The notes beneath the pieces were generated by a model that worked only from the letters and a program-made list of their open reading frames with translations, had not been told where the DNA came from and made no database searches. A stretch of 64,000 bases of DNA from an uncultured Fibrobacterota bacterium (GTDB lineage Bacteria > Fibrobacterota > Chitinivibrionia > Chitinivibrionales > FEN-1185). Shown here piece after piece: positions 27,709 to 56,776 of the stretch. The stretch covers positions 225,323 through 289,322 of the forward strand of contig CAVWBU010000041.1 of assembly GCA_963753345.1 (NCBI GenBank), given 5' to 3'. How positions within the stretch are numbered: position 1 is the first letter of the stretch; every line of letters begins with the position of its first letter. The position numbers were made by a program, and so were the translations under genes.

Positions 27709-27924
27709 AAGCCTAATTTGGTATATCGGCCAACCGGTTAAGAGAAAGTAGAAATTGGAGTTGTTGCGCTCAGGCTAATGGGATTTTTTGCGCGCCATGG
27801 CAGTATGTATATTCAAGAAACTCAAATTCGTCGCATTCAGGGCAATAATATAGTATTTCTGCGTTGGTTGTTTGCTTTTTTCCATTCGGAAATACCTACA
27901 GGCGATTCACATAATCGAGGTAAT

Positions 27925-31516: not shown

Positions 31517-31818
31517 GGATGGGTATTGGATTGACGTTTTGTCAACACAGCATGCAACAGCGCCGCCACCGTCCGAACCAGGTAAGAATATACAGTGCAC
31601 CGGGAAGACTTGTCAAACGGATAGGGAGCAAACGTTGCGGCCGTGCGCAAAACCGCCATTCCGCACAGGCTTGCCTAGGCGCTTGCTTGCTTTTCGGAAT
31701 TACCGGTGCTATATTGATCAAATCGATGGACTGGCCTCCGTTGCAGCTGGGCAACGTGAAAAGCAAGCAAGCAATCAAATGGTGATGCATTAACTCTTAT
31801 CCCGCCAAGAGTGAGATC

Positions 31819-34621: not shown

Positions 34622-34738
34622 AGTCCGCTTGATTTTGAGATCGGGCCAACACATTCGCGGCCAGCCGTTTCACTAAAACGTTTTTTTTCAAATCAGAGGA
34701 TCAATCCAGATTGCTAATTGAGAATTGGCGTGCGGCCT

Positions 34739-35245
34739 ATGATACAAATAAGGTCTGCGGAAAAATCGGACAAGAAGACCATAGACGGGATACTGGCTTC
34801 CTCCTTTACGCGTATCTACGCCTATTACGCAAAAAAATCATTTGCCAGCCTCGAAAACGCCCTGGTTGCCGTAAACGATGGAGAAGTCGTCGGGGTCATT
34901 AATTGGCGCGTGTATGCCGTCCCCACAATAACCATAGGTTACCTTTTTTGGCTTGCCGTGCTTCCCGGCCATAGAAGAAAGGGAATAGGATTGGACCTTA
35001 CCAATCGGGCCATACAAATCATCTATGAGAAAAACGGGCCGATTGACATTTACACTGCCGCAGAGAAGAAAAATGAAATTTCACAAAATCTGGCGGAACA
35101 AGAGGACTTTGCCATGGTCGACAAGAAGAAAATAAGGCGGCACTATGGCAAAAACTATGCGGCCCTTTTCGGCGATATGATGGTGATGCCGTGGGAATGC
35201 CTTTATGTAAAGCACCCCGATGCTGTGGCGCCAAGGGCGCTGTAG
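34739..35245 (+). CDS. GNAT acetyltransferase
   Basis: LAVLPGHRRKGIG acetyl-CoA motif. Confidence 0.85.
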   Translation: MIQIRSAEKSDKKTIDGILASSFTRIYAYYAKKSFASLENALVAVNDGEVVGVINWRVYAVPTITIGYLFWLAVLPGHRRKGIGLDLTNRAIQIIYEKNGPIDIYTAAEKKNEISQNLAEQEDFAMVDKKKIRRHYGKNYAALFGDMMVMPWECLYVKHPDAVAPRAL

Positions 35246-35266
35246 AGCTCACCTTTCGTGTTCGGT
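35236..35266 (-). repeat. Degenerate 5S rRNA fragment
   Basis: ggcgctgtagagctcacctttcgtgttcggt vs 5S ggcgcggcggagcttaactgccgtgttcggt; shares the acctttc variant with the 43574 copy. Confidence 0.6.
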
Positions 35267-35351
35267 AGAGGACCTCAATAGAACCTGGATCACAGATCCA
35301 GGCCACACGGTAAGTCTTGAGGTTCTGGCGATAGGATCACGCAGGCCACCC

Positions 35352-35393
35352 GCCCGGCGGCGACTTGCTCTCCTGCCGGGGTACCCGTGCAGT
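35352..35393 (-). repeat. Degenerate 5S rRNA 3' fragment, truncated by a MITE
   Basis: ggcggcgacttgctctcctgccggggtacccgtgcagt vs 5S ggcggcgacctactctcccgcacagttgcccatgcagt. Confidence 0.7.
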
Positions 35394-35557
35394 TGAAGAA
35401 CCCCGCCCCAAGTGGCGGGGATTCTTCCATAGCTAAGGAAATGGAATAACAAATATTCGCCCGCTAACCCCGCGCCACCACGACTACGCCTGCATACATA
35501 CTACAGGAGTAGCCGCGTAAGCGAACTCGCGGGGAATGCGCGGGCTGTGCTATTCAA
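35393..35557. mobile_element. Non-autonomous IS200/IS605-like element, copy 1
   Basis: TTGAA...TTCAA ends, two subterminal GC hairpins; second copy at 43017-43135. Confidence 0.65.
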
Positions 35558-36402
35558 TGGACCGGCAGCACAATGGATGAAATTCCTGTCTGCAAATGCA
35601 CCCGTATGAAATAGATCCCCGGCCCAAGAATATTCTTTCCGATCACGCACGGCGACGACAAAACAGGCAGGCAATAAACGGTTTCTCCCTGCCCGTTGAC
35701 AATTTCCAAACGGCCCTTGCCTTCACCAAAACCTGAAATCACATACCCTTGCCCGGCTGTTGAAATATGAAGCGCATTCCGGTACCCTGCAGCGCCCCTT
35801 GCAGGGACTGCCGTTCCTGTCAGAGTATTGCCAAAGGTCACTTGAATGCTGTCATAGACAGTGGAAGTACCCCACGGGCAAGTCGGATTCCTGGAAAATA
35901 TTCTACCTATTTTTAGAGGAACATATCGCAAAGAAAGGTAATAGTTAAATCCTGTACGAAAAACGAGGAGACGTGTGTAAAGCGAATCCGCGCCGCCCGG
36001 AACAAGGCCGTAAGGGCCAATAAGAGTGCCTGATGAAATGGGACAACCGCCTGATACAGACCCGGAACATTTTACAAAAAGATTCGTGTCCGCCAGCTTC
36101 GCAGTATCGCCTTTGTAGTCGCTGTAATCCATTGCATGCCTTGACACGTAAAAGGGCCTTCCCGACGTGGCAGTAATGGCCGGGCAGCAGAAGCACATGC
36201 AGGTGCAGCCTTCGAAGTAGCTCCAATAGAAATCAATGCTGTCGGACGGGCATGACGGGGGATTCGAAGAAAGGGTATAGGAAAAATCATTTGGGGGCAC
36301 CGGACTAAAGCTCATTCCTGAAGAGTTCGGCAGGGTAACCGTACCGGCATAGGAAGAAACAAAGAGGGTTGCCGCAAGAATAATCCCTTGAATAATACGC
36401 AT
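35554..36402 (-). CDS. Secreted Cys-rich protein with T9SS-like tail
   Basis: GGAG RBS, MRIIQGIILAATLFVSSYA; CTCMCFCC; tail LEIVNGQGETV...PGIYFIRV. Confidence 0.78.
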   Translation of the reverse strand: MRIIQGIILAATLFVSSYAGTVTLPNSSGMSFSPVPPNDFSYTLSSNPPSCPSDSIDFYWSYFEGCTCMCFCCPAITATSGRPFYVSRHAMDYSDYKGDTAKLADTNLFVKCSGSVSGGCPISSGTLIGPYGLVPGGADSLYTRLLVFRTGFNYYLSLRYVPLKIGRIFSRNPTCPWGTSTVYDSIQVTFGNTLTGTAVPARGAAGYRNALHISTAGQGYVISGFGEGKGRLEIVNGQGETVYCLPVLSSPCVIGKNILGPGIYFIRVHLQTGISSIVLPVH

Positions 36403-36629
36403 GGGTATCTCCCCGTTGAGTGACGAGAACGCCGCACCGACGCACGGCATATCCGCGTCCCGTAGTCGCGAGCGTCATGCCGCACGTACGGAACGTTTCT
36501 GTCTCTAATATAAAGTGAATGGCGCTTCGATGCAACAGAAACAGAACACAAACCCAAGAAAAGGTTTTCTGGCAGAAAACATTATTGTTGATGGATGGCG
36601 GTGGGATTTACTGCTCGTTGGGATCAAGT

Positions 36630-36696
36630 AAAAACCCCCGCCTCTTTTCAGAAACGGGGGCCTAAATTTAATCTACCGACAACTTACTCTCACACA
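36630..36696 (-). repeat. Copy of the rrn terminator plus degenerate 5S 3' end
   Basis: aaaacccccgcctcttttcagaaacgggggcctaaatttaatct nearly equals 46331-46374; then accgacaacttactctcacaca vs ggcggcgacctactctcccgca. Confidence 0.8.
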
Positions 36697-36711
36697 GGCA
36701 TGATTGAACGT

Positions 36712-39499
36712 CTAATTCCTCATCAGCACTACGCGCTTGACCGCCACCTGGCTGCCGGCGGCGGAGAGGCGGACGAAATACACGCCGTTGCTGTGCGACT
36801 GATCGGACAGCGAAATCGGGTGCCAGCCCGCACCGCAGCGGCTGCCGGAAATTTTCTTCACTATCCTTCCGTTGGCGCCGAGAATTTCAACCGAGACGAA
36901 TGATGGTTGACTGATGAAATACCGGATCATCCGGCCGTCGGTCTCGATAATGCATTCCGGACGCACCATGTGCGTCGGCAGTCCGAGATGGGTGCCTACC
37001 GGAGTGTCGAAAATCGGCACTTGAATAACGGGTGCAACAACATTGTAGGAGGCAGTGCCCTGGACAAGCCCCGGCGACGTCGCAGTTACCGTCACCGTCC
37101 CGGTTGTAAAGGTGGAAAGCACGGCTACTTTGCACATGCCGCCCTGTGCGGAAAGCTCGGGGTCGCCCGGGGCGTGGACCGTGATGGCGCCCGCCTTGAC
37201 GTCGCCGTCCGCGCCGCCGCGGTACGTGCCCGGCCCGGAAACGGCAAAGGTGATGTAGTGGCTGTCGGTGGGGCACCAGTTGCCAAGCGCGTCGACCACC
37301 GTGGCAAGAATGAACGCCGCGTCGGAGCCGTTGGCCGTAATCTGGAATGCGGTGCCGTCGGGTTTCACCAGCGGCGGTTCAACGGTCAGGAGAATATGGT
37401 CGGGATTTCCGGCGGTTACCTTCTGGTCGGAACAGACGAGGATTGTTGTTCGCGTCAAGTCCTTCGGCGAGCAGCGTTCCGGAGGCCCAGGTCACGTTCC
37501 ATTGACATTGCGCAGGCATGCTGCCGCCCACCGCGGGAACCACCGGGTTGCCCTGCTGCTGGCCGTTGATTGACAAGCGCACTTTGGGACAGTTGCTGAA
37601 GGCATTCACCGTTACCGCGCCGGAGCGGTTCCAGTGGTTTGCAAGGCTCACAACCGGCTTCACCGAAAACGGCATCCAGTTTGCCTGGTAGATCTTTGCC
37701 AGCATTTTGGGAATGCGGTTGTGGTCGAACATGGCTTCCTGGAATCCTCTGCCGAGCCCGTCTTCACCCGGCGTTTCGGAAAAATACCAATGCGCCAGGC
37801 CGAAACATTTTGCCTGTTGATAGCCGTACCAGTTCTGAACAAATACCTGGGCGAAACTGAGTTCGTTATCGTAGTCCCAGCGATAGCATCGATGCGTATA
37901 ATCCCACTCCTCCGCGCCCCATATCGGAGTTGTTGCATTGCCGTTTTTAAACCCGATCCCGCACCCCAGGCCGGAGCACGACCATACTTCGGCAATGTTG
38001 TTCGTGGCCGCATCGCCGTATCCCCGGTCCGACATCGGGTGGTAACTTATCGGGTCCCAGACCTTCTGGATGCTGTCGCGCAGATATTGCTCAAAGGTCT
38101 TGTCGATGGGGCCGTTGCTGACTTCCCACGAGAGGATCGAAGGGTTGTTACGGTCACGGATAATCATGTCGCGGTGGCATTCGGACTTGAGCACCCTCTT
38201 GTACCCGGTATCCGGACCGGCAGTGATCTGGCTGGTGGCGAAGTTCCCCTCAAGTTCGCCGCTTGGCTGCATGAGCATGATGCCGTATGCGTCGCAGGCC
38301 GCCGTGAATTCCGGGCTGCCGGTGGAGTGGCCGGGACGCCAGAGCCTGCCGCCGTATTGTGAGCATATTTTCGCGTCGCGCCACTGCTGTTCCTCGGGAA
38401 CCGCGGTGGCCAGCGCGGGATAATCGTAGCGCGAACCAACGCCCCACATCTGATGCGCATGGCCGTTGATGACCGGCATCCCGTTGTTGTCCCAGGTTAC
38501 GGTGCGGATGCCCAGCGGGCTCTTGAACGCGTCGACGGTGGTGCCGCCGACCTGGACAATGTGATAAACCTTGTACATGTACGGTCCGCCGTAGGTGCTG
38601 GCGGCCGGATACCACAGATGCGGATTGGAAACAGTGTGGGTCTGGTCGAACACATAGCTCTTGCCTGCGGCTATGGACTGCGTGCTCGTCTGCGAGGACA
38701 CTATCGCGTTTGAAGCGTCCACGATCTCGGTAACAAGCGTGGCATTCTGCGCGGTGGTGTACTCGTTTTGCACATGGGTCATCACGCGCACCGTAGCGGA
38801 GGCGTCGCTTGCCGCTGTCGCGCCGACGCAGGTTCCCCAGTTATTGACAACAGAGTAAACGTTGGCGGGTATATACAGTTTGTCGGTGATGTGCATCCAC
38901 ACCGGCCGCCACAATCCGTAACAGCCCTGGCCGAACCGGAAATCGTAGGAAAAGGTCGGCGTGGAGAAGAACGGCCCGCCGTCTCCGATACGCACCGCCA
39001 GCACGTTGTCCGCGCCGCCGAAAACGACATAGGGGGTAAGGTCGACGATGACGGGCAAAAATCCCACCACATGCGTCGCGTTGGGGTTTCTCCCGCTGTT
39101 GCCTTTAATCAAGCTGTCGTTTATATAGACCTGCATCCCGATATGCGACGCCTCGAACTCAACGAATATCTTCCTGTTGGAAAAACTCTGGTCGAGGGAG
39201 AAGTGCTTCCGGTACCAGGAGAGTCCGCCCATGTTCGGAGCCGGCCCGCCGGCAGCCGTGTTGACGTAAATGTCGTTTTCATTCCATGTGTGCGGCAACC
39301 CGACGGTAGTCCATGCTGCGTCGTTTAGCCCCACGGTCTGGCCATTCAGCGCATCGCCCCTGGTAAACTTCCACGGTGTTGCCCCGAAGTTGATTTTCAG
39401 CCTGTTGCCCTGGTCGGGTGCGGAGCCTTGTGCCTGTAAAGATGTGATTGACAATACAAGGACGGCGAGGATGGATACAAAGAACTTTTGGTGATTCAT
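36712..39499 (-). CDS. Glycoside hydrolase family 2 with T9SS-like tail; one frameshift near 37440
   Basis: WYRKHF, PHLWYP, GIRTVTW, IRDRNNPSILSWEVSN, NAFSNCPKVRL; ORFs 37379-39499 and 36712-37458 join. Confidence 0.88.
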
Positions 39500-39894
39500 G
39501 AAGTCTCCCCCTTGAATGTTAATCGTTTAAAATCATCTGATGATGAATTATTCATAGCTTGTTTAGCATGACGAAATAAGCGCCTGTCTCTTACAAGAGA
39601 ATATAAGGTATCTTGCTATTTTTGTCAATAGCGGTAAAGGATTTGGCATCAAACGGTGAGATATCCGCAGAGGTGTTCAGGGTGAACGTGTATGGATTTT
39701 TCAGGGAACAGCGCGCCACGGTCATCGCTTCGACACTTCGATAAACTCAGTGCATCGCTTCGCTCAGTGCAGGTCCTGATCGTGCACCGTTTGCAAAGAG
39801 TATTTCCGAGGACGACAGTTGAACAAATTTTTTCATTATTGGTCACCCAGGGCACCCGTGCGTTGCTTAAGCTTTCGAATTAGGAGACGAACTC

Positions 39895-39923
39895 TTGACA
39901 TGGTCATTTAGAATGACTATATT
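39895..39923 (+). promoter_or_regulatory. TA promoter TTGACA-17-TATATT containing inverted repeat GTCATT-N3-AATGAC (likely operator)
   Basis: Read directly, about 30 nt upstream of the antitoxin ATG. Confidence 0.75.
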
Positions 39924-39951
39924 ATAACAACAAGCGATAAAAGGGGCGATT

Positions 39952-40185
39952 ATGAAAACAATGGCCATCAGCTCATTCAAGGCGCATGCCTTGCGGGTCA
40001 TCGATGAGGTCTCAAGGACGCATGAGGGGATCGTGATTACCAAACGGGACAAGGCAATGGCGGAATTGCTGCCCTATCGGACCAAAAACAAGACCCCAGT
40101 CCCCGGGAGACTGTCATCCGCGCTTGTACACGAAGGGGACATTGTTTCTCCCCTGGGCTGCTCCTTATGGGAATCCTGCAAATGA
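39952..40185 (+). CDS. Phd/YefM family antitoxin
   Basis: ISSFKAHALRVIDEV...IVITKRDK. Confidence 0.88.
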   Translation: MKTMAISSFKAHALRVIDEVSRTHEGIVITKRDKAMAELLPYRTKNKTPVPGRLSSALVHEGDIVSPLGCSLWESCK

Positions 40186-40580
40186 AATACCTGCTTGATA
40201 CCCACGTCTGGATCTGGTGGAACATGAATCCGGGGCAATTATCCCGAAAAGCAAAAAAGCTCATCGCGTACAGCGGTAATTACGACGAACTCCTGTTGTC
40301 CGCGATTTCTCCCTGGGAACTCTGCAAATTGATTGAAAAGAAGCGGCTTGCCGTCGCTTGCGATCCTGAGGAATGGATGAGGATCGCATTGGACATGCCG
40401 AAACTGAGGTTGGTTCCGCTGACACCCGCTATAGCTTACAAATCCACAGTCCTGCCGGGAAATCCTCATGATGATCCGGCGGACCAGATTATTGTTGCGA
40501 CCGCGCGCGAAGAGAACGCCGTCGTGATCTCCAAAAATGAAAGGATCAGAAATTGCAAGGATGTAAAAAGCGTCTGGTAG
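40182..40580 (+). CDS. vapC: VapC PIN toxin
   Basis: YLLDTHVWIW, SAISPWE, HDDPADQIIVATA; ATGA overlap with antitoxin. Confidence 0.88.
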   Translation: MKYLLDTHVWIWWNMNPGQLSRKAKKLIAYSGNYDELLLSAISPWELCKLIEKKRLAVACDPEEWMRIALDMPKLRLVPLTPAIAYKSTVLPGNPHDDPADQIIVATAREENAVVISKNERIRNCKDVKSVW

Positions 40581-40609
40581 TCGCACCTCCAATAACGAAA
40601 CAGGAGAAT

Positions 40610-42931
40610 ATGAGAAGAGAGATCAACTCCGCAGGCGTGATGTACGCCATCTTCTTCCTGTCCGGAATAAGCGGGCTCGTGTACGAAACGGTCTGGCTCA
40701 GAATGCTGATCCGGGTGCTGGGCAACACCGTGTATGCAACATCGGTCATTCTGGCGGCTTTTATGGCGGGTTTGGCAATTGGAAGCTATGTGATAGGCAG
40801 GATTGCAGGGCGTGTGAGAAACGGATTGCGGCTCTACGCTTTTCTTGAGCTGGGCGTGGGCTTGTCGGCGGTGGCGTTGATAGGGGTGTTCGAGCACCTG
40901 ACGCCGCTGTACCGGTTGATGTACACGCTTGCTTCGGGACATCGGACACTTCTCACGCTGTTTCAATCGATTCTCATGGTAGCGCTGCTCATCGTTCCCA
41001 CGAGCCTCATGGGCGGAACGCTTCCGGTCTTGAGCGCGTATACGAAGCGTTTTCAGACCGGGCTTTCACGGCGCGTCGGCATCCTGTACGGATCGAATAC
41101 GCTCGGTGCGTTTGTTGGCGTTGTCGGCAGCGGGCTGTACGCTATCGGCGCCTGGGGAGAATGGCAGACCATTTTCTGCGCCGCCCTCCTGAACCTGGCG
41201 GTTTCGCTGCTTGCATTCAGGATGTCCCGAGCGCCTGCGGTCGCGGAGATCGCCGCAGCGACCGGGGCCGACGGGGCCAAGGCCGGTTCAGCCGTCTTGA
41301 CTCACAGGAAACTCATCCTTTGGGCCTACGCGGCGAGCGGGTTTGCTGCCATCTCCTACGAAATCGTCTGGACTCGGATGTTTCAGATCGAGCTGGGGAC
41401 GTCCATTTACGCTTTCAGCATGATGCTGGGGTTCTACCTTCTTGGCATCGGCCTGGGAAGCCTGGCCGGAGGGATGCTTGTCCGAAAAATCAACAACAGC
41501 CTCAAGCTCTTTGGCTGGCTGCAGGTTGCGGTGGCGCTGTACGGCGTGGCTGGCATGTACCTTCTGCTCGGGTTCGACCCGGTCACTCTTATTCAAGACA
41601 TCGTTCTGTCCAATATTATCACCGTGCCGCTCCTTATCGTGACGCCCCTCACCTTGGTGCTGGGCCTCATGTTCCCCGTGGTTTCTTCGCTGTATGTCGA
41701 AGAGCGCGAAACGGGCCGCGGGGTTGGCCGGCTCTACTCGGCCAATACGGCCGGCTGCATCGCAGGATCGCTGGTGTGCGGTTTTCTCCTGATCGGCGCT
41801 CTGGGCACCAGAGGAACCATGCTTTTACTTGCAGGGATGAATGCCATGCTTGGCGCGGCGATCCTTCTGGTTGACGGTCGCCGCAGGGCCGTCCTTTCCG
41901 CCGGGCTGTCGGTCGCTGTGGTGGCGGCCGCCGCGCTGCTTTCACCAGATCCATTCCTGACGGTAATCGGCAAGTCGGTGCGTCAGATTTACGGCGATCA
42001 GACCCCCCAGGTCACCTTGTATCACCACCGGGAGCGCGCCGCGGCCACCACCACGGCGCTTGGCATCTCCGCCTATCCGTTGACAAAAGAGCTCTTTGTC
42101 AACGGCATTGGAATGACCAGACTGTGCACGGAAACCAAGCTTATGGCCCATCTGCCGCTCGCGCTCCACCGGAATCCGCACAGCATTCTCGTGATCTGCT
42201 TCGGCATGGGTACGGCCCTCAGATCGGCATGGGCGCACGGGGACATTTCCTGCGACGTCGTTGAGTTGGACGGAGAAACCTATAACTGTTTCAAATACTT
42301 TCACGCAAACGGCGACCAGGTGCTTGCCGACCCCCGGGTCAGACACTACGTTGACGACGGCCGGAATTTCCTGCTTATGAACAGACGCACCTACGATGTG
42401 ATAACCATGGACCCTGCTCCGCCGCTCTGGAGCGCAGGCACGGTGAACCTTTACACTAGGGAATTCTTCGGCTTGTGCCGCGACCACCTGGCCGGCGGGG
42501 GGATCATGTGCCTGTGGATACCGCCAGCGAGTTTTCCCGAGGTACGCATGATCATGAAAACCTATCAGAACGTTTTCCGGGGAACATGGGTCTATGGCGG
42601 CCCGCACATCGGAGGATTCCTTATGATAGGTTCCTCGGTGCAGCCGGATACCGGCATTGCCCGGTTCCGCGAAGCGCTTGGCAGCGCATCCATTATGGCG
42701 GACCTGAACGAGTGGGAAGAGCGGCCGCTTACCCCCGAAGCAATCCAAAGCCTCTTTCTCATGGGTCCGGAAGCATTGAGAATATTTACAAGCAGCGCCT
42801 CGGTAATTACGGACAACAATCCCTATACTGAGTTCCCTTTATGGAGGAGCATTTCGGACAAGTCCTACCATTATACGCTCGACGCACGGTGGCTGTGGTC
42901 CTGGAAGATCCACAATTTTCCAAAGTACTGA
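40610..42931 (+). CDS. Membrane-fused spermidine-synthase-like (SAM-dependent) protein
   Basis: SGISGLVYETVW repeated TM halves; VICFGMG, DDGRNFL, YDVITMDP, ITDNNPYTEF. Confidence 0.88.
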   Translation: MRREINSAGVMYAIFFLSGISGLVYETVWLRMLIRVLGNTVYATSVILAAFMAGLAIGSYVIGRIAGRVRNGLRLYAFLELGVGLSAVALIGVFEHLTPLYRLMYTLASGHRTLLTLFQSILMVALLIVPTSLMGGTLPVLSAYTKRFQTGLSRRVGILYGSNTLGAFVGVVGSGLYAIGAWGEWQTIFCAALLNLAVSLLAFRMSRAPAVAEIAAATGADGAKAGSAVLTHRKLILWAYAASGFAAISYEIVWTRMFQIELGTSIYAFSMMLGFYLLGIGLGSLAGGMLVRKINNSLKLFGWLQVAVALYGVAGMYLLLGFDPVTLIQDIVLSNIITVPLLIVTPLTLVLGLMFPVVSSLYVEERETGRGVGRLYSANTAGCIAGSLVCGFLLIGALGTRGTMLLLAGMNAMLGAAILLVDGRRRAVLSAGLSVAVVAAAALLSPDPFLTVIGKSVRQIYGDQTPQVTLYHHRERAAATTTALGISAYPLTKELFVNGIGMTRLCTETKLMAHLPLALHRNPHSILVICFGMGTALRSAWAHGDISCDVVELDGETYNCFKYFHANGDQVLADPRVRHYVDDGRNFLLMNRRTYDVITMDPAPPLWSAGTVNLYTREFFGLCRDHLAGGGIMCLWIPPASFPEVRMIMKTYQNVFRGTWVYGGPHIGGFLMIGSSVQPDTGIARFREALGSASIMADLNEWEERPLTPEAIQSLFLMGPEALRIFTSSASVITDNNPYTEFPLWRSISDKSYHYTLDARWLWSWKIHNFPKY

Positions 42932-43016
42932 TAGGAAGTTTGATTTTTGCACGTGTGGGAGGATTTATAATATTTTGCGCCAGGGGCAAAATTGCATTTG
43001 TTAAGAATGCAATATA

Positions 43017-43135
43017 TTGAAGAACCCCGCCCCAAGTGGCGGGGATTCTTCCATAGCTAAGGAAATAGAATAATAAATATTCGCCCGCATAACCCCGCGC
43101 CAAGTCGCGGGGAATGCGCGGGCTGTGCTATTCAA
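43017..43135. mobile_element. Non-autonomous IS200/IS605-like element, copy 2
   Basis: Near-identical to 35393-35557 except for a short hairpin loop. Confidence 0.65.
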
Positions 43136-43284
43136 GTGGGGAAGGTTTCCCCCGTCGGGCGACGCCTCGAAGCACCCGAAGGGGTGCACTTCTCCCTCGT
43201 CAGGGATTCCCAAGGGTCACAAGGGTCGTCCCCCTCGCTTCAGCCCGGCGCGCCTCCTCATGATATAGCTTATTGTCAATGGCG

Positions 43285-43405
43285 CGCCGGGAAAGCTCAT
43301 GCGCGTGAGGGTTGTCTTTCCAATTTGACGTGACCCGAGGACGCAGACACAGGGGAAATTGTCCGGGAGTTTCTTGAGCTTGGGGGTCGCCGCTCTCGTC
43401 CACAT
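43285..43405 (-). pseudogene. N-terminal remnant of an AAA_14/DUF4143-type ATPase
   Basis: KLKKLPDNFPCVCVLGSRQIGKTTLTRM Walker A, then similarity is lost. Confidence 0.6.
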
Positions 43406-43573
43406 ACTTGAAGTATGGAAGTTTAACTTGTAATTTGCAAGATATATGCAATAAGTCATTTCATCAAGAACGCCCTACCATTGGCACGTGCTCGTTCCGT
43501 AAAGAACACTGCCGAGGACCTTCGGCGGCACGGAATTTGTCATTTTAGGTCACCCGGGGCACCCGAGCGTAGG

Positions 43574-43645
43574 TCGGCGCGGCGGAGCTTACCTTTCGTG
43601 TTCGGCATGGGAACGGGTGTTTCCTCCGCGCAATAACCACAAGAA
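43574..43645 (-). repeat. 5' part of 5S rRNA (about 72 nt, 5 mismatches)
   Basis: tcggcgcggcggagcttacctttcgtgttcggcatgggaacgggtgtttcctccgcgcaataaccacaagaa aligned by eye to 46417-46488. Confidence 0.92.
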
Positions 43646-43742
43646 TATCTTTAAAAAAGCAGTCAACAGTCAGACACGGTCCGGGGGACCGTGGCACACA
43701 AATCAACCTTTTTCAATCGATCACACGGTCAGGCCACCCGTC

Positions 43743-43775
43743 CGGCGGAGATTACCTGCAATGTTCAGTGTAGGA
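43743..43775 (-). repeat. Degenerate internal 5S rRNA fragment
   Basis: cggcggagattacctgcaatgttcagtgtagga vs cggcggagcttaactgccgtgttcggtatggga. Confidence 0.6.
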
Positions 43776-43897
43776 CCTCAAGAGAACCTGGATCGCAGGT
43801 CCAGGCCACACGGGAAAATCGGTGCCCGCATTGTCTATTGCCTCGATCCCGACAGGGTTGCTTTTCAAATCAGGCAATCGTTGCCTGAAAATTCGCG

Positions 43898-44632
43898 TCA
43901 AAACCGAAGGCCAAGCTGCACGGCGGCGCCGTTATTGCGGCACGGCCCGACACCGAGGGTCAATTCTGGACCGGAGTCACTTTTTTCAACGCCTGCATAT
44001 TGTTTCCTTGCCTGTTTGCCCGAGACAAGTGCGTCGATTGAAAGCGATATGCAGCTTATGCTCCCAACGATCCCCTCTGACGCGATCACCGGCTGTGCAA
44101 CAGACTGTGGAATATCCACATTAGCAATGGCCAAGCCGATCATCACCACACCCGCGCCCACAAATAGACCATATTCGCACCATCCCGAAATTCTCAATCC
44201 AACAACGCCATCCACCTTTTCACCGCTTCTGGCCGAAGATCCGCCAATGCTAATGATCGGCACCGTAATTGCATCAAGGAGCAATCCAGATGCACCCAAG
44301 GGCAATGAAGCCGGGTCTTCTCCTTCGGTTGAAGCCGAGCCGATGCACAATCCCAAAATAATCGGCGAAACGACAAATCCCGCAATTGCCGAGCCGGTGG
44401 CAAACCCGCCGGAGTTATGGTGCTCGCTGGATTCCGTCGATAGATGGGCTTCGGTTTTCTCGCGGGCGGGAACCGGCTGCGCCGCCTTTACCGTGTCCGG
44501 CTCGCGACATTCTCCCTGCACGCAGATACGGTTTCCCTTGCAGTCGCTGTCCTTCGTACACTGGGAAAATGCGCCGTTCGCAACGGCCGCGATAATAAGC
44601 GCAGAAAAAGCGAGAGCGATGGACTTCTTCAC
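43898..44632 (-). CDS. Exported/membrane hypothetical protein with Cys-rich N-terminal module
   Basis: AGGAG then GTG, signal peptide, CTKDSDCKGNRICVQGEC, hydrophobic segments, ends QLGLRF. Confidence 0.75.
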   Translation of the reverse strand: MKKSIALAFSALIIAAVANGAFSQCTKDSDCKGNRICVQGECREPDTVKAAQPVPAREKTEAHLSTESSEHHNSGGFATGSAIAGFVVSPIILGLCIGSASTEGEDPASLPLGASGLLLDAITVPIISIGGSSARSGEKVDGVVGLRISGWCEYGLFVGAGVVMIGLAIANVDIPQSVAQPVIASEGIVGSISCISLSIDALVSGKQARKQYAGVEKSDSGPELTLGVGPCRNNGAAVQLGLRF

Positions 44633-45068
44633 ATGCCTCTCCTTTGTTGAAGTGGAAAGACTGATAGTGATTTCCTTTTTTCGTGACTGATAACTGATAG
44701 TGATTTTCTTTTTTCGCAAGCGAGCGGGCGTATAAGGAGAGTTTCTTTACAGACGCTCATTTGTCCCCTGTTTTCCCGCCCCTGTCCTCCGTCGGGGATT
44801 TCTGCGTCTTCAGGCACTTCCCCCTCGTCAGGGATTTCCAAAGGTCACAAGGATCGGAGGCATCTCCGTCTGCATCTTGACCGGCATCAAGGAACAATAT
44901 AGCTATTTATTCGGACAATTGTCAAATTGGGAAATACCGGTCTTTCTGGCTCCGGCTCGAAGCCTAATAAGGGGCTGGATTTTTCAGGCGCAGATCGTTT
45001 CGTGAAGCAAAACAACATACAAAAAAAAATAAGCCCCCGACGCTTTCGCATCAGGGGCCTTAATTTAA

Positions 45069-45182
45069 TCTGGCGGCGACCTACTCTCCCGCACAGTTGC
45101 CCATGCAGTACCATCGGCGCGGCGGAGCTTAACTGCCGTGTTCGGTATGGGAACGGGTGTTTCCTCGACACAAAAACCGGAA
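45069..45182 (-). rRNA. Second 5S rRNA copy: 3' 98 nt identical, 5' end diverged (possibly non-functional)
   Basis: 45069-45166 matches the operon 5S; own terminator at about 45031-45061. Confidence 0.8.
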
Positions 45183-45289
45183 ATTGGCCTCTGCCGGGAC
45201 GTCAATGGCACACGCGTGGGGGGATTGGTCATACAGGCCACCCGTCGCGCTATGATTTTCATGAATGTTCTCGCCAAAGTGTTCAGTCA

Positions 45290-45937
45290 TCACGGAATAG
45301 TCTTGCGAACTTGTCTGGCATACACGCTCTCCACGAGCAGTTTATTGACAACACCATCGGTCAGATTTGTCCATGTCGACATTTCGATACCGGGCTTGGA
45401 AGTGAAAACCTCCATGTCGATATTCCCGCGCGCCAGAACAGAACCGTTTGCAGCACTCCAATAGGCGTAGGCACAGGTAAACCTGAGGGAGTTTGTTATA
45501 ACATTCTGTGTGAAATCGAGGGTTACGATAATTGAAGAATATACCTTGACATTGTCTATAAGAAGAAGTATGTCTGAATCACATGAGAATGACTTGCTAC
45601 GGGCGGAGGTTGCAAGATATCGAATGTATCGCCGAATATTTCTCAGAGAATCGAGGCCGGGCTGGACCAGCCCATGATAATCACATTCCTTTACCGTATT
45701 GAAACAGGATTGCCTTTCCATGCCTTTCACAATTGAGGTCTGCAGATAGTTTCGAATGAGGATATCCTGGTCTCCGTCGCCAAACTCATTCCGCACGTCT
45801 CCGCTATACCGGATTTTGCAATTGAGAAACGTGGCAATCCCGAGAGATTTCGTCTTCAGTTCATTCTTGGGAAGGTTTACCAGAACACCGGTGCACGAGA
45901 ACATGAGTGCGAAAGGCACAACAAGAAGGCTTTTCAT
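45290..45937 (-). CDS. Putative lipoprotein
   Basis: MKSLLVVPFALMFSC lipobox; TTGACA-17-TATATT promoter at 46111-46139. Confidence 0.7.
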   Translation of the reverse strand: MKSLLVVPFALMFSCTGVLVNLPKNELKTKSLGIATFLNCKIRYSGDVRNEFGDGDQDILIRNYLQTSIVKGMERQSCFNTVKECDYHGLVQPGLDSLRNIRRYIRYLATSARSKSFSCDSDILLLIDNVKVYSSIIVTLDFTQNVITNSLRFTCAYAYWSAANGSVLARGNIDMEVFTSKPGIEMSTWTNLTDGVVNKLLVESVYARQVRKTIP

Positions 45938-46330
45938 GCAGATCCTGCGCCCGGGATGGTAACGGTGCGCGGCTGACTTCATACCATCTGATAGTAATTT
46001 CAATTTTTCATTGAGCATCAGGGTTTTGACTGAATTCTCTTTTCCCCGGCGCTTTTGAGCCGCATTGTCCGGTGCTCGATTCGCCATTCCGACGGTCCTT
46101 TTCATTTGAGAATATACGGTTTTGGAATGTTTTTGTCAACCACTTTTCCCTGCAGTTCTTGCATTTGACCCAGGAAAAGCCTTCCTTCTGGTCACCGCAT
46201 TTCGGAACCTTGTCAATCAACAAGCGAATCATCGGCTGCCCATCGTGAAAATGCCACGATGGGGAAAACATGTGATGAGCGCCACCTTCGAGCTCGATTG
46301 TCATGGTCGAGCCTTGGCCCCAAAATAAAA

Positions 46331-46361
46331 AAAACCCCCGCCTCTTCTCAGAAGCGGGGGC
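46331..46361 (-). terminator. rrn rho-independent terminator
   Basis: CCCCCGCTTCTGAGAAGAGGCGGGGG hairpin plus T tract after 5S. Confidence 0.85.
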
Positions 46362-46371
46362 CTTAATTTAA

Positions 46372-46487
46372 TCTGGCGGCGACCTACTCTCCCGCACAGT
46401 TGCCCATGCAGTACCATCGGCGCGGCGGAGCTTAACTGCCGTGTTCGGTATGGGAACGGGTGTTTCCTCCGCGCAATAACCACCAGA
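46372..46487 (-). rRNA. rrf: 5S rRNA
   Basis: TCTGGTGG...CCCATACCGAACACGGCAGTTAAG...GAGAGTAGGTCGCCGCCAGA with paired ends. Confidence 0.97.
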
Positions 46488-46562
46488 AATTTATCGATGA
46501 TAAATCTCTGACAATATCCTGATTTTAAAGCACTTCATTTCGCCGGGATGTAAATAAAAAGC

Positions 46563-49533
<2,971 letters not shown>

Positions 49534-49684
49534 ACAATTAATTACATCTCGACGAAATGATGTGCTTCAAAATCAGGATATATGTCAAAGAGCATTTATC
49601 AAACAAGTTGACGGTTGGCAGTTGACAGGTTGGCAGTATTTAAACCTGCCAACTTTCAACTGCAGTCCATCAACATTCTTTTCT

Positions 49685-50022: not shown

Positions 50023-51585
<1,563 letters not shown>

Positions 51586-51882: not shown

Positions 51883-54228
51883 TTATGCGACGGACTGCTG
51901 CTGATACAGGTATTTCTGAAACCCCGCAAACACCTTCCCTATCTCCTCCGGCTTACCCAGATCGTCCACGGCATCTGCAATCGAATCGTGATACTTGAGC
52001 CGCAATAGAGGCGTTAGCTTCTCCTGGTCAAGCTCCTCCACACCGACCGCCACGTAATGTGACAGAACGAAGTCGAGAAAGACTTGGAGTTTGCTGTTGA
52101 AATGCGTGCTGATGATCACCTTTGCTTTTACGGCGCGCTCTTCCCGAGTAAGCGGCGTCATGGCATACGCCACATGCGCCAGCACATCGAAAATATCGCT
52201 CTTTTCGGCATCGATAATCTTCTGCATCTCGGCCAACTGCTCATTGCCAAAACCCTTCTCTGCGAGACCCTGCAAGAGTTTTTTCCGTGTATCCGGAGCG
52301 CTCCACAGTGTGCGGAGTTCATTTTCATTCTTGAAGAATTCCGGCAGCTTGCCAAACAGGAGTTCCATAAACTGCTGCGCCGACATCGGTGTTCCGTCGG
52401 GATGCCAGAAGGTCGTCACCATCATGTGCTGAATTGTCCGTTCCTTGCCATCGGCTAGTTTCACTTTTATCTTCTTCTGGCTGTCTCGCTTGCTGTTCCG
52501 GCGGTTCCCGCATTTCCGGACGGGCACGGAATAGCTTCGGCGGAGGAGACACGCATAACCCGGCATCCTTCGGTTCTCCGGCTCAATGGGTTCGCCGTCC
52601 CATTCGGGGTCGCTGAAATGGTGATGCGCCTTCACAAAATCATAGATCGTGAAATAATCTTTTCCGTCGTACAGGCGTGTACCGCGCCCTATAATCTGCT
52701 TGAACTCAATGATGGAATTGATCGGCCGCATAAGGACGATATTGCGGATGTTGCGTGCGTCCACGCCTGTGGCGAGCTTCTGCGACGTGGTGAGGATCGT
52801 CGGGATGGTCTTCTCGTTGTCCTGGAATTCACGCAGGTGCATCTCTCCGAGCTCGCCATCGTTTGCCGTCACCCGCTGACAATAGCTCGGCTCTTTGCTG
52901 GTTTTCATCTGGTTGATGAGGTCTCGCACAGCCAGTGCATGGTCCTGTGAGGCGCAAAACACCAGCGTTTTCTCGTTCTGGTTGATCTGGTCCATGAATA
53001 TCTTCACACGGTGGGCTTCCCGTTCCTTGATCTCGATGATCTTGTTGAAATCGGGTTCCGTGTAGAGCTTTCCATATTCGACTTCACCCTCCATCACACG
53101 GTCGTCCGGCGTATACACGTACTCGTCAAGCGTTGTGGAAATCTGTTTCACCTTGAAAGGCGTGAGGAACCCGTCGTTGATACCTTCCTTGAGAGAATAG
53201 ATGTATACCGGGTCGCCGAAGTATTTGTAGGTGTCCACGTTATCTTTACGCTTGGGAGTGGCGGTCATACCCATTTGCACAGCAGGAGCAAAGTATTCCA
53301 GAATGCCGCGCCAATTGCTCTCGTCGTTCGCGCCGCCGCGATGGCACTCGTCAATCACGATGAAATCAAAAAAGTCCTGGGGGTATTCTCCAAAGTAAGG
53401 AGATGGCTTGCCATCCTTTGGCGGGCCGCTCATAAACGTCTGGAAAATAGTGAAAAAAAGGCTGCCGTTGGTTGGCACTCGTCCCTTGTGCCGGATACTA
53501 TCGGGCTCGATTCGTACCAGCGCGTCCTCGGGAAAGGCAGAGAAGACGTTATAGGCCTGATTTGCGAGGATGTTCCGGTCTGCGAGGAAAAGTATGCGCG
53601 GACGACGGGATGGTTCACGGCTCAGGTTCCAACGGCTATGGAACAGTTTCCAGGCGATCTGGAACGCGATAAACGTCTTCCCTGTGCCGGTAGCCAGCGT
53701 GAGCAGAATACGGCGCCGGTCTTCTGCTATGGCCTCCATCACACGATCAACGGCAATGTCCTGATAGTAGCGGCTCGGATGAGAGCCGCCCTTGTCCTCA
53801 AACGGTACGCTGGAAAAACGGTCGCGCCAAGCGTTCACTTTTGCAAACGTCATGTTCCAGAGTTCGTCCGGCGTGGGATAGCGCGGCTTCTCCCCCTCCT
53901 TGCCGGTCTCCATGTCGATGCCGTAGATGCCTTTGCCGTTAGTGGCATAGGTAAAGCGAACGGCCAGCTTGTCGGCATAGTTCTTTGCTTGCGCGACACC
54001 TTCCGTCAGCTCTTCATCCCAGGCTTTAGCTTCGATCACTGCCAGTTTACGGGTGCGATAGACAAGAACATAATCTGCGATGAGCGGCTTGCCACGCCGA
54101 CCATGGCCTTCGATACGGCCCGGCGAAATGGAATATTCCCGCAGGACCTTGCTCCCGTCAACAACGCCCCAGCCTGCGGCTTTGAGCGCGGGGTCGATGT
54201 GGTCAGCGCGGGTTTCGGCTTCGTTCAT
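51883..54228 (-). CDS. hsdR: Type I restriction subunit (EcoAI/EcoEI-like)
   Basis: MNEAETRADHIDP, ADYVL...VIEAK, LATGTGKT, DECHRG, TATP, QIIGRGTR. Confidence 0.93.
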   Translation of the reverse strand: MNEAETRADHIDPALKAAGWGVVDGSKVLREYSISPGRIEGHGRRGKPLIADYVLVYRTRKLAVIEAKAWDEELTEGVAQAKNYADKLAVRFTYATNGKGIYGIDMETGKEGEKPRYPTPDELWNMTFAKVNAWRDRFSSVPFEDKGGSHPSRYYQDIAVDRVMEAIAEDRRRILLTLATGTGKTFIAFQIAWKLFHSRWNLSREPSRRPRILFLADRNILANQAYNVFSAFPEDALVRIEPDSIRHKGRVPTNGSLFFTIFQTFMSGPPKDGKPSPYFGEYPQDFFDFIVIDECHRGGANDESNWRGILEYFAPAVQMGMTATPKRKDNVDTYKYFGDPVYIYSLKEGINDGFLTPFKVKQISTTLDEYVYTPDDRVMEGEVEYGKLYTEPDFNKIIEIKEREAHRVKIFMDQINQNEKTLVFCASQDHALAVRDLINQMKTSKEPSYCQRVTANDGELGEMHLREFQDNEKTIPTILTTSQKLATGVDARNIRNIVLMRPINSIIEFKQIIGRGTRLYDGKDYFTIYDFVKAHHHFSDPEWDGEPIEPENRRMPGYACLLRRSYSVPVRKCGNRRNSKRDSQKKIKVKLADGKERTIQHMMVTTFWHPDGTPMSAQQFMELLFGKLPEFFKNENELRTLWSAPDTRKKLLQGLAEKGFGNEQLAEMQKIIDAEKSDIFDVLAHVAYAMTPLTREERAVKAKVIISTHFNSKLQVFLDFVLSHYVAVGVEELDQEKLTPLLRLKYHDSIADAVDDLGKPEEIGKVFAGFQKYLYQQQSVA

Positions 54229-54268
54229 GATATTCAATGTAGAATGGACAATTGATAATGGACAATTA

Positions 54269-54628
54269 TCAACGGCCAATCCCTTGTTTGGTTGAGTTGA
54301 TGATGCTGGTAAGTAATTTCAAGAGTTCCTTGTTGGCATCTATGAAAGATTCAGCTTCGTTGGTATTTAGATAGCCGGTTTCCCGAAGAAGCAAAAACCA
54401 GTATTCCGTTTCGTTGGCTTCCTTGAGAGCTATCGCCATCTTATGAATAAAATCAGGTTTGCTTTCAGCCTGTTCCGCCTCACGGACCAAGGCACCGATT
54501 GCCGTGCCGGACCGCAACAATTGTTTGGATAATACACGTTCCTTCTTCTCAGTAGATAATTGCTTATACAGGTTCACAACCCGAACTGCAAACGTAAAGG
54601 CCTTGGTTTGAAGTGCTCCGTCTCTCAT
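54269..54628 (-). CDS. Four-helix-bundle protein (23S IVP/bAvd-like)
   Basis: KQLLRSGTAIGALVREA, DFIHKMAIALKEANETEYW; flanked by heptamer repeats. Confidence 0.88.
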   Translation of the reverse strand: MRDGALQTKAFTFAVRVVNLYKQLSTEKKERVLSKQLLRSGTAIGALVREAEQAESKPDFIHKMAIALKEANETEYWFLLLRETGYLNTNEAESFIDANKELLKLLTSIINSTKQGIGR

Positions 54629-54629
54629 T

Positions 54630-54806
54630 ATTCATTATCCATTGTTCGTTGGCAATTGACAATTGATAATGTACAATGGTCAATTATCATCGGGCAATCC
54701 CGTCTTTCATTGTCCATTGCTCATTGTCCACTTTCGATTGATTATTGTCAATCATTTATTTTCTATTGTTCATTGTCCACTTTCAATTGTTCATTGTCAA
54801 TTGTCC
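54630..54806. repeat. Degenerate 7-bp tandem repeats (CATTGTC/AATTGTC); partner tract at 54236-54270
   Basis: cattgtccattgctcattgtcc..., caattgttcattgtcaattgtc. Confidence 0.85.
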
Positions 54807-56070
54807 CGTGAATGCCTGGTGAAGAAGGGATTTTTTCAACGTCATCAAGCGCGGCGAGTTTCTGTTGGTAGATGGATTCGAGGTGTTGGGTTTCTTGCAA
54901 CGTAGCTTCGCAATTTCCCAGCTAATCGCGATCTTGCTCTCGGCGAGGTGGTACAGGAATCGGCATAACTCTAGTATCTACAATTGACACGCATTTGGTT
55001 GCATCAAGGTATTTACTCGCTCCTTGACATGAGTCTGAGAACTGCATTCGTAGTTAAGTGAGTAAAATAGAAATCGTCGTGCAAATAGTCTTGGGCGAAT
55101 CAGCGAGCTGTATTGCACAGCGACACGCTGGTTCAGAAGCGCACCATCATAATTCATCGGGTACAACCGCGACCTTGACCCAACGGCGATACATCGTGCG
55201 GGTCAAGGCAACAACATACGCCATTCATCAGCCGATAGCTTCGTCAAATATTGTCAAAAGTTATCGGGGAATCGCTGTCCATTCACTAACAAACTCTCCG
55301 ATCCAAATTAGTGACTCTTGATGCATTTTATGCCGTTTTACGTGAGCAATCCGTACTTTCGAATGCATATTACCATTTAGAATCAAAGCGGAAAAGTAGC
55401 AAGTGGTTTTTCAGCTCCAACCCTCCCCCATTGAGAAAAAACGAATTGCAGATGGCTTTCAAACAGGGCCCGCGCATTCTGCAGATTCTTTTCGGCGTTG
55501 GCTTTGGCGGTGGCGATGCCCTCAAACGCTTTGTCAAGGATGCCGACGATGCGGTGCTGTTCGGGAAGCGGGGGGACAGGAACCTGGGTATTTCTCAACT
55601 TGATTTGCGAAATACTTCCTTGTGCGTTTCCGGTGGCTTGCTCCACCAATTCATCTTTTCATGAAAGCAGAAAGAAGAAAAACAAACTCTGGGACGAAAT
55701 GGTTGTATCGGCAATATCCCGCATACTGCTTGATTCGTGGTTGCCTCAAACCGCGTTGGGTACTTCCCACTAGACCAGCTGTTACCGGAGCGCGACATTG
55801 CCACTAAGACCGTATCCTTCGGCAAATATTTTGGCAGAAGAATTCTCAAGTCCGCAATTTTGTAATAAATTTTGTAGCGGACCGAATTTCACCATTGACT
55901 CACTTCACTGAATTCAGGAACCAAGGAATTGTCCCTCCTTCGTAGTATTCCTTTTTAGCCATAAGCGGCGTACCACCCGCACCGGTTTGACAGACATCCC
56001 CCAGCCTTTTTATTTCCCACCCATCCTTCCCATTACTCCCATTCTTCCCATTACTCTCATTCTTGCTCAC
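54783..56070 (-). pseudogene. hsdS: Type I specificity subunit, multiply frameshifted as assembled
   Basis: GTG...GWEIKRLGDVCQTGAGGTP...EYYEGGTIPW; VPPLPEQHRIVGILDKAFEGIATAKANAEKNLQNARALFES; ends LKKSLLHQAFTGQL. Confidence 0.85.
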
Positions 56071-56145
56071 AGCATCCCCCGAATCTTCCCCAGCACCTCC
56101 GCGCTCTCCGCCGCTTCTCCAAAACCCCGTTTTTTCATTCCCCGC
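56064..56145. repeat. hsdM 3'-end direct repeat (other copies at 56770-56851 and 57396-57438)
   Basis: 82 bp with 1 mismatch to 56770-56851; 43 bp with about 5 mismatches to the hsdM end. Confidence 0.93.
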
Positions 56146-56776
56146 TCCTTTGCCCTTCCCTCGCCTGCAACCTCGCCCTTGTCATTCGCTCCCGTAAACC
56201 GCCCTCTTTCAGAAAATCCTGCTCCAAACGGCGGAGCTGTTGGTCAACCAGATAGTTGGTCTGGTGTATAAGGCAAAGCGCGATGTTTGCAACAACTTCG
56301 GGCGGGCGGGTTTCCACGAACGTGCGGTAGTCTTCATACGTTTGCGGCGTTTTGCGGCCCAGGTTTCGCACGTACTGCGCCTCTTTGGAGTCTTTGTCCC
56401 AAATGGGCAGGTCGCGCGCGCGAAGAAAGTCTTTGTAGTCGTCCAGCAATTCTTCAAGACTGGCCCGCGCCACGTTGGTGAGCTTGATCTCGGTTTCCTT
56501 GGATGTCAACGCGGCCTTGCTGCCCTCCAGAATATTCTTTTTCCCTGATCGGGCAGACTGCACCATTTGATCGATGGTGCGGTCCCCCTTAGCAAGAAAC
56601 TTATGCGCGAAGCGGAAGGTGATATCATAAATAACTTCGGCCTTCTGGAAAGACAGCAGTGTCTGGTAGTCGCCTCGGGGCGGTATTATAGGATGGGAGT
56701 TATGGGAATGATGCGACGGATGATGCCCGCTCATCATATTTATCCCATTCTTCCCATCACTCCTATTCGTGCTCAC
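56135..56776 (-). CDS. Four-helix-bundle suffix-domain protein
   Basis: RTIDQMVQSARSGKKNILEGS, VARASLEELLDDYKDFL, FLKEGGLRERMTRAR. Confidence 0.85.
   Translation of the reverse strand: MSTNRSDGKNGINMMSGHHPSHHSHNSHPIIPPRGDYQTLLSFQKAEVIYDITFRFAHKFLAKGDRTIDQMVQSARSGKKNILEGSKAALTSKETEIKLTNVARASLEELLDDYKDFLRARDLPIWDKDSKEAQYVRNLGRKTPQTYEDYRTFVETRPPEVVANIALCLIHQTNYLVDQQLRRLEQDFLKEGGLRERMTRARLQAREGQRSGE

Follow-up and report, generated by a model that had tools for sequence, protein, structure and literature searches.

The DNA analysed here (the window) comprises the final 64 kb of contig C41 in the metagenome bin of an uncultured Fibrobacterota bacterium (G000; 55 contigs, 4.5 Mb, 94% complete with a contamination of 4.8%), and it contains a single ribosomal RNA (rrn) operon on the minus strand. 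The operon runs from 16S (50026-51585) through tRNA-Ile, tRNA-Ala and 23S (46560-49534) to 5S (46371-46487), which is followed by the operon terminator, T1. Between T1 and a convergent acetyltransferase gene lies an array of four minus-strand genes for predicted exported proteins and one opposite-strand block, punctuated by fragments of the 5S gene in the orientation of the operon (Table 1). An earlier reading of the sequence (the original prediction) had proposed that genes were acquired repeatedly at the 3' end of the operon and left 5S-derived direct repeats behind. We evaluated this proposal using G000, five congeners (G001 to G005) and more distant relatives, all of them metagenome bins, together with contigs from four metagenome runs.

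Table 1. Features of the array, from the end of the rrn operon outwards. C2, C3, c4 and c5 are 5S remnants; repeat X is a dispersed repeat of about 70 nt.
Feature	Position	Strand	Basis
Operon 5S rRNA gene, last of operon	46371-46487	-	RF00001, 106.7 bits, full length
Spacer and operon terminator T1 (15-pair stem, T run)	46328-46370	-	Terminator scan; homologous to post-5S terminators in congeners
IS91-family (Y2) transposase remnant, N-terminal zinc-binding part only	46008-46304	-	Pfam Zn_Tnp_IS91, E 0.0038
Promoter-like site before gene 1, TTGACA-17-TATATT	46111-46139	-	11/12 match
Cassette gene 1: 215-aa orphan, lipoprotein-type signal	45290-45937	-	Translation
Repeat X, weak copy directly before C2	45197-45245	-	nhmmer E 4.9e-5 within 13 kb
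5S remnant C2	45054-45184	-	About 19 nt of diverged 5' start, then 113 nt equal to operon copy
Terminator T2, sequence unlike T1	45031-45060	-	Terminator scan, alignment
Promoter-like site before gene 2	44896-44925	-	11/12 match; neighbouring 5' region also found ahead of other genes in the genome
Cassette gene 2: 244 aa, signal peptide, cysteine-rich stretch, hydrophobic segments	43898-44632	-	Translation
Repeat D7b: hairpin half of repeat X fused to 5S-like stretch (5S positions ~32-65)	43743-43816	-	Score 31, null maximum 30
Repeat X, weak copy	43687-43744	-	nhmmer E 0.001 within 13 kb
5S remnant C3, 5S positions 1-72	43574-43645	-	RF00001 match 43551-43644, 56.1 bits
Repeat X, few bases past C3 end	43499-43569	-	nhmmer E 9.5e-16
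120-nt dispersed intergenic repeat, terminator-like hairpin	43015-43135		>40 matches on at least 20 contigs
Opposite-strand block: small open reading frame, PIN-domain gene, major facilitator superfamily (MFS)/spermidine-synthase fusion	39952-42931	+	Pfam
Promoter-like site of PIN/MFS block	39895-39923	+ (block)	11/12 match
Repeat X	39794-39862	-	nhmmer E 7.6e-19
Promoter-like site before GH2	39600-39628	-	11/12 match
GH2 glycoside hydrolase with type IX secretion system (T9SS) sorting tail	36712-39499	-	Pfam, NCBIfam; two frames in window
Remnant c4: last ~27 nt of 5S and T1-type terminator	36630-36696	-	16 nt past GH2 stop
Cassette gene 4: 282-aa orphan, signal peptide, T9SS-tail-like end	35554-36402	-	Translation
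120-nt dispersed intergenic repeat, second copy	35393-35557		Sequence match
Remnant c5, 5S positions ~76-113	35356-35393	-	76% identical; score 31, null maximum 30
Diverged X-like element	35275-35355	-	nhmmer E 0.045 for first 22 nt
Weak 5S-like stretch, 5S positions ~38-69, C3-type variant	35236-35266	-	Score 29, null 95th percentile 28
GNAT acetyltransferase gene, convergent, conserved distal flank	34718-35245	+	Pfam

Searches with RF00001 and by sequence alignment identified three unambiguous minus-strand copies besides the operon 5S (C2, C3 and c4), as the original prediction had it. Together with the operon gene these are the four strong 5S-derived matches of the genome, and they all fall within 10 kb on one strand, running downstream from the operon; an even spread of 5S matches over the genome, for which a search had been suggested as a check, was not seen, and elsewhere in the 4.5 Mb there was only one further match (15.5 bits, E 4.25). 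The operon copy alone is a full-length 5S with helix I formed by both ends and no flagged pairs. C2 matches RF00001 at 45068-45184 (79.7 bits) with non-canonical pairs flagged in helix I, which would be unable to form because the first ~19 nt are diverged. Its identity to the operon copy had been recognized and its length understated at 98 nt, the exact run being 113 nt (45054-45166) and extending 15 nt beyond the 5S end. C3 has the expected 5 mismatches in 72 positions: positions 5-38 are exact, four of the five mismatches lie beyond position 38, and positions 73-117 are missing. The composition assigned to c4, a 5S 3' end joined to the rrn terminator, was likewise borne out (36630-36691, 87% identity over 62 nt, E 6e-15 genome-wide). 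C2 and C3 are 5S pseudogenes, although both score above the Rfam gathering threshold of 38 bits.

The remnants begin at scattered 5S positions (about 1, 5-20, 32, 38, 76 and 91). The stem-loop of T1 is common to 14 of 15 aligned units, while the adjoining 5S part decays, and use as a terminator would be sufficient by itself to explain this conservation.

The three weaker segments of the original prediction (D7b, c5 and 35236-35266) are marginal when taken singly. Genome-wide their E values are 2.6 (for two of them) and 9.2, with 19 equally weak matches elsewhere in the genome, so at that scale they did not stand out. Within the locus they fared better: their local scores of 31, 31 and 29 lie above the 95th percentile (28) of local-alignment maxima in a null set of 100 resamples, each 12.3 kb long and drawn under a first-order Markov model (median 23, maximum 30). 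D7b is 81% identical to 35245-35313, and the hairpin half of the element at 35275-35355 is common with 43776-43816. The weakest segment, 35236-35266, has an exact 15-mer in common with the C3 variant. Contigs of three of the metagenome runs described below (X1, X2 and X4) have 33 extra letters at 35355, which read as the 5S-distal spacer and a terminator arm and would extend c5. Judged together from these sequence matches, the three segments appear credible as 5S remnants.

As originally described, the exported-protein genes end shortly before the 5S segments; the gaps from gene ends to remnants are 16-161 nt and are occupied by other dispersed repeats. Signal peptides and lipoprotein signals of genes 1, 2 and 4 were judged by eye from the translations. 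Gene 1 had no Pfam or NCBIfam family, and relatives with 26-27% identity were found in just one of seven other genomes of the family. Gene 2 likewise matched no family in these databases except for one sub-threshold domain match; its relatives (42-49%) lie at other loci of G000, G002 and G005, and in a metagenome contig collection it matched five loci, which have only the cysteine-rich N-terminal stretch in common with it and include no close relatives. The GH2 gene has orthologs in G001 (96%) and G005 (87.5%). It occupies two frames in the window, and the base at 37442 is absent from contigs of all four metagenome runs; omitting it merges the frames into one of 928 aa, and the extra base reflects either an error in the assembly or a frameshift specific to this strain. 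Gene 4, also without a Pfam or NCBIfam family, has an ortholog (62-64%) in the G005 array, there upstream of GH2. Orthologs of the acetyltransferase gene flank the arrays of G001 (82%) and G005 (69%).

To look for variation among close strains, we aligned assembled contigs, not reads, from the four public metagenome runs best matching the locus (X1 to X4, from peat and freshwater sediment) to the window. In contigs of X2 (1,830 nt) and X4 (1,136 nt) that are ~99% identical to the window, 43606 is joined to 45147, skipping 1,540 bases. The skipped segment (43607-45146) holds T2, the promoter, gene 2 and repeat X. With long flanks on both sides, the joint falls in the sole 20-nt exact block common to C2 and C3, which is also their longest exact match. 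Gene 2 occurs on contigs of X1 and X3, and also of X2, where they coexist at lower depth with the cassette-less form. Since forms with and without gene 2 occur among near-identical contigs, the gene 2 cassette is polymorphic among close strains with its breakpoint in 5S homology, which bears out the proposal that 5S remnants serve as recombination sites. Beyond the hybrid remnant, the same X2 contig continues unbroken across gene 1, T1 and the operon 5S and enters 23S, and the proximal layout is therefore confirmed in an independent assembly; other contigs span 35528-43070. Two other joints (45160-46696 and 46466-46677) had sides of only 25-33 letters and were taken as the 5S-23S of other organisms.

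The structure of the two remnants suggests how the variant arose. C2 has a diverged 5' end followed by its perfect 113 nt; in C3 the match is near-perfect up to position 38 and divergence follows, and both remnants switch at the 20-nt block. This chimeric pattern would be expected if a perfect 5S had crossed over once with a decayed one, and in our judgement the cassette was probably inserted rather than deleted. Alternatively, a deletion combined with gene conversion may account for it.

Gene content downstream of rrn is not fixed among relatives. A search of 30 relatives with RF00001 gave a match in 14, with none in G001 or G002. The layout with 5S remnants nevertheless recurs in three congeners (G001, G004 and G005) with different genes or a different gene order, and the pattern is genus-wide. 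In G004, the 5S and T1 are followed by a GLUG-motif gene, 5S positions 1-80, two more open reading frames (ORFs), a 73%-identical piece (positions ~32-117) and then an ortholog of the window gene at 23491-24846; RF00001 places the second, partial 5S 2.1 kb past the first. In G005 the 5S and T1 precede a promoter and a gene of 130 aa, after which come an X-like element, a leader resembling a spacer, and a 5S that has an internal deletion and is followed by a terminator. Beyond these lie ~30 kb of mostly same-strand genes punctuated by T1-type units, including a half 5S (27822-27912) and, 31 kb out, a whole decayed 5S with terminator (31642-31808, 71% identical), and the block stops two ORFs short of a convergent acetyltransferase gene orthologous to that of the window. 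A probe made of the 5S 3' end and T1 had 7 of its 11 matches in G005 on this 36-kb rrn-distal contig, where the recurrent unit reaches ~100 nt past T1 and includes the promoter.

In G001 the acetyltransferase gene is followed by T1 with ~50 nt of 5S and then GH2, and no gene 4 was seen in the interval between these two genes on the 3.1-kb contig. The units after the orthologous GH2 genes differ, being longer than c4 in G001 and terminator-only in G005, and the order of GH2 and gene 4 is reversed between G000 and G005. Proteins of the window array had no match in the first 12-20 kb past 5S in G003, G004, G005, G017 or G018. A 961-base probe (42940-43900) retrieved mostly dispersed repeats and no C3 ortholog from the five congeners. 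In other genera of the order, 13 of 14 rrn-distal loci had no extra same-strand copy: 7 were free of further matches and 6 matched only at the palindrome of the terminator itself. The remaining one (G032) had a single terminator-like copy. The two 5S copies of G060 belong to tandem rrn operons and were not counted as remnants. Tandem pairs of whole 5S genes, 273 nt from start to start, are present in two species of another genus of the order, g25 (G051:C547 180-570 and G048:C315 24-414).

We searched the arrays for enzymes that could mobilize the cassettes. Among 14 + 38 window ORFs there was no integrase or transposase family besides an IS91 remnant, in keeping with the earlier statement that the window holds no recombinase, and none was found among 27 + 2 ORFs of contig C60 of G005 or 4 ORFs of the G004 array. 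Tyrosine recombinases gave eight PF00589 matches in G000, none of them on contig C41. One such gene lies in a 4.7-kb stretch that is 99.6% identical between two contigs (C15:179480-184202 and C25:1-4724), which is a two-copy element or an assembly overlap. A 5S-like 18-mer near this duplicated integrase lies inside a coding region and was taken as a chance match.

The IS91 remnant, which the original prediction had missed, lies between T1 and the first cassette promoter. Its homology is confined to ~46134-46238, where 35 residues are 57% identical to the genome's only intact IS91-type gene (C26:285223-286656); that copy adjoins an insertion sequence with a DDE transposase. An intact Y2 transposase with ori and ter ends, as in IS91 and ISCR elements, was not present at the locus. 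We considered IS91-mediated transduction of 5S pieces and dropped it, as there is a single 35-residue remnant and the congener arrays have none.

Repeat X abuts several remnants, which had also escaped the original prediction. It has 12 copies in the genome, two of them in the locus, plus three weaker matches detected only within the locus, all on the minus strand and touching 5S pieces. It combines a 5' block that is conserved with a hairpin showing compensatory changes, and mostly lies just past stop codons. A defence island (G000 C27:268736-279984) has three copies, located behind the genes for an OLD-like ATPase and a helicase and behind an orphan gene. Four of the five congeners have the repeat at low copy number. 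Repeat X had no Rfam match, no Y1/RAYT transposase was found in the genome, and DNA folds of five copies were no better than shuffles except for one (z -2.07). A sigma-54 promoter was rejected by eye, as the spacing is not constant. The 120-nt repeat has dozens of matches in G001, G002, G004 and G005, and none was seen in G003. Contigs of all four runs skip or replace 43008-43219 (joint 43007 to 43220), and the repeat behaves like a mobile miniature element.

Some further observations concern the genes of the locus and its surroundings. The MFS/spermidine-synthase fusion (40553-42931, a 792-aa ORF) would be frameshifted in contigs of X1, X2 and X4, which are without 8 bases at 40859. A ~22-nt motif has four occurrences ahead of cassette genes, each between the promoter and the start codon (including 42927-42948, 44660-44716 and 45987-46010), and the region at 44692-44943 recurs before genes on contigs C18, C19, C21 and C26; these may represent a shared 5' leader of exported-protein genes. 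Upstream of rrn, 51883-58851 encodes a type I restriction-modification system (HsdR, HsdM), a member of the '23S rRNA intervening sequence protein' family and a DUF1016 protein. Because this restriction-modification cluster is directly upstream, the operon bears accessory genes on both sides.

We think it probable that accretion at the 3' end of the sole rrn operon has given this uncultured Fibrobacterota genus a hypervariable array. The repeated unit would be the operon end, that is, 5S or its 3' part with T1 and in places the downstream promoter region. Acquisition could proceed when the chromosomal unit and a copy of it, carried beside a gene on circular or circularized DNA, undergo a Campbell-type single crossover. 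Each crossover would rebuild a whole 5S beside 23S and leave a partial unit distal to the new gene, so that older cassettes would be pushed toward the conserved flank. Displaced units would keep the terminator that ends the upstream cassette gene, and the useless 5S part would decay. As the units are direct repeats, homologous recombination between them could also delete, re-insert and reorder cassettes. RecA, named as a fallback in the original prediction, would be the best-fitting agent of these exchanges.

Three observations fit such accretion: the units closely follow gene ends, the most distal unit touches the conserved flank gene in G000, G001 and G004, and identity to the operon copy falls broadly with distance, as the original prediction had noted. 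The repeated acquisition that it proposed also agrees with the differing cargo of the relatives. Several points weigh on the other side. No circular form or donor arrangement was seen among the contigs, for which 15 of 29 joints are listed. C3 and the G004 segment at 4869-4946 are 5' parts of 5S, and the simple model needs later insertions or deletions to produce them; two of the remnants having turned out to be 5' parts, which the original prediction had overlooked, a simple 3'-end att model is insufficient. The concentration of repeat X here, where it abuts 5S pieces on both sides, is unexplained by the model, as is the first linkage of an unrelated gene to a flanking unit. The gene 2 indel may be a plain deletion, its direction being assigned by parsimony. 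No close relatives of gene 2 were found in the metagenome contig collection, and movement of cassettes between genomes is therefore conjectural. Finally, all genomes are metagenome bins, of which G001 is 73% complete, and in G001 and G002 RF00001 found no 5S.

The same repeats might instead be passive relics, in which ancestral tandem 5S copies were later eroded by unrelated insertions and deletions and had no role in gene gain. The tandem whole 5S pairs of G048 and G051 provide a plausible starting state, the second copy of G005 retains a leader resembling the 23S-5S spacer, and the dispersed repeats and IS91 remnant attest to other insertion activity. We nevertheless consider this explanation unlikely, as G005 would require at least nine ancestral copies, the remnants lie right behind gene ends and act as their predicted terminators, the indel is joined inside remnants, and C2, unlike a relic, matches the operon copy without a single difference over 113 nt. 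It is extremely unlikely that the extra copies are false, produced by mis-joining of rRNA-related reads from several organisms. The 55-contig bin is 4.8% contaminated and 5S and 23S positions draw depth from many organisms, but the X2 contig, from another sample, is unbroken from the hybrid remnant to 23S, others span 35528-43070, and three independently assembled congeners have the same layout. The index that found the runs moreover uses 31-letter words, and the 20-nt shared block is below that length; the metagenome contigs were presumably themselves built from words of 31 letters.

A dedicated site-specific system, in which an unlinked recombinase uses the 5S 3' end and T1 hairpin, or repeat X, as an attC-like site, appears very unlikely. 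Such a system would suit single-gene cassettes that are each followed by a hairpin-bearing repeat, the unusual conservation of the T1 stem-loop, the position of repeat X directly past stop codons here and in the C27 defence island, and the eight tyrosine recombinase matches elsewhere in the genome. Yet no integrase adjoins any of the four arrays, the remnants begin at many 5S positions rather than one, and the sole joint seen falls within the longest block common to C2 and C3, in the 5' half of 5S, and not in T1 or repeat X. At least three cassettes (gene 1, gene 2 and GH2) have their own 11/12 promoter match, and terminator function alone could account for the conservation of T1. For the same reasons (scattered boundaries, a joint away from any fixed core, own promoters and arrays free of integrases) we abandoned the integron-like and att-scar wording of the original prediction. 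A broader proposal, in which the rrn 3' end would be a genuine platform for gene capture, seems distinctly unlikely; the platform would be served by an unlinked dedicated enzyme acting on the 5S-end/terminator unit, perhaps with repeat X, or, given the conservation of rRNA between species, act as a universal homology landing pad for foreign exported-protein genes that are acquired singly.

The closest known cases are the tandem islands at tRNA and tmRNA genes and hypervariable region 2 (HVR2) of SAR11, while integrons are similar by resemblance only. As in tRNA/tmRNA islands, direct repeats of the 3' part of a stable RNA bound the insertions (C2, c4 and c5, and the units of G001 and G005), the intact gene is proximal, the oldest repeat lies at the original flank and divergence broadly rises with distance. 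Unlike those islands, the target here is 5S with its terminator, the units are single genes of 1-3 kb, 5' fragments occur, boundaries are unfixed and the joint lies at plain homology; neither an island-borne integrase nor a fixed crossover core was found in the arrays. SAR11 HVR2 is a strain-variable region beside rRNA genes, and its authors propose that the rRNA genes act as homologous-recombination sites spreading variants (PMC2217521, PMC4053759). Strain-variable genes beside rRNA, with exchange in homology, appear to be present here too, as cargo differs between G000, G001, G003, G004 and G005 and the indel falls in 5S. As portrayed in the HVR2 passages of those papers, however, the SAR11 region lies between 23S and 5S and carries cell-envelope biosynthesis genes, as opposed to exported hydrolases and orphans, and neither repeated 5S remnants nor terminator units for each gene are described there.

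Integrons share with the array same-orientation single-gene cassettes, each with a hairpin-bearing repeat, and variation in their presence, absence and order. Here, by contrast, the repeats derive from 5S and its terminator with long homology, and no IntI, no attI and, by eye, no attC core motifs were seen. No IntI-type gene adjoins the array among the 52 window ORFs, the 29 ORFs of G005 C60 or the 4 ORFs of the G004 array, and the separate sigma-70-type promoter matches before gene 1, gene 2 and GH2 differ from the mostly promoterless cassettes of integrons. On a by-eye reading, the T1 units and repeat X do not end in GTTRRRY/RYYYAAC, the inverse core and core motifs of attC. In homology-facilitated illegitimate recombination of naturally transformable bacteria, a one-sided conserved anchor lets foreign DNA enter beside the anchor, usually replacing or deleting recipient DNA. 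The rrn operon would be the most conserved anchor at hand for such events, but the anchor is not usually duplicated there. In the open-access full-text literature we found no description of a bacterial cassette array bounded by 5S remnants.

These results have practical consequences for genome analysis. Because two pseudogenes here pass the Rfam threshold, 5S counts can be inflated, and an automatic annotation of this single operon would list three 5S genes; such repeats also break short-read assemblies. The site could serve as a trial landing pad should members of the group become tractable. If the accretion array is what we propose, 5S rRNA would join tRNA and tmRNA among the stable-RNA genes that serve as insertion sites, in this case apparently with no dedicated integrase. 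The end of the rrn operon would then be a natural slot in which single genes are added, dropped and shuffled, supplied with a terminator and in places a promoter, and would show how a Fibrobacterota lineage of peat and sediment varies its secreted hydrolases and surface proteins between close strains.

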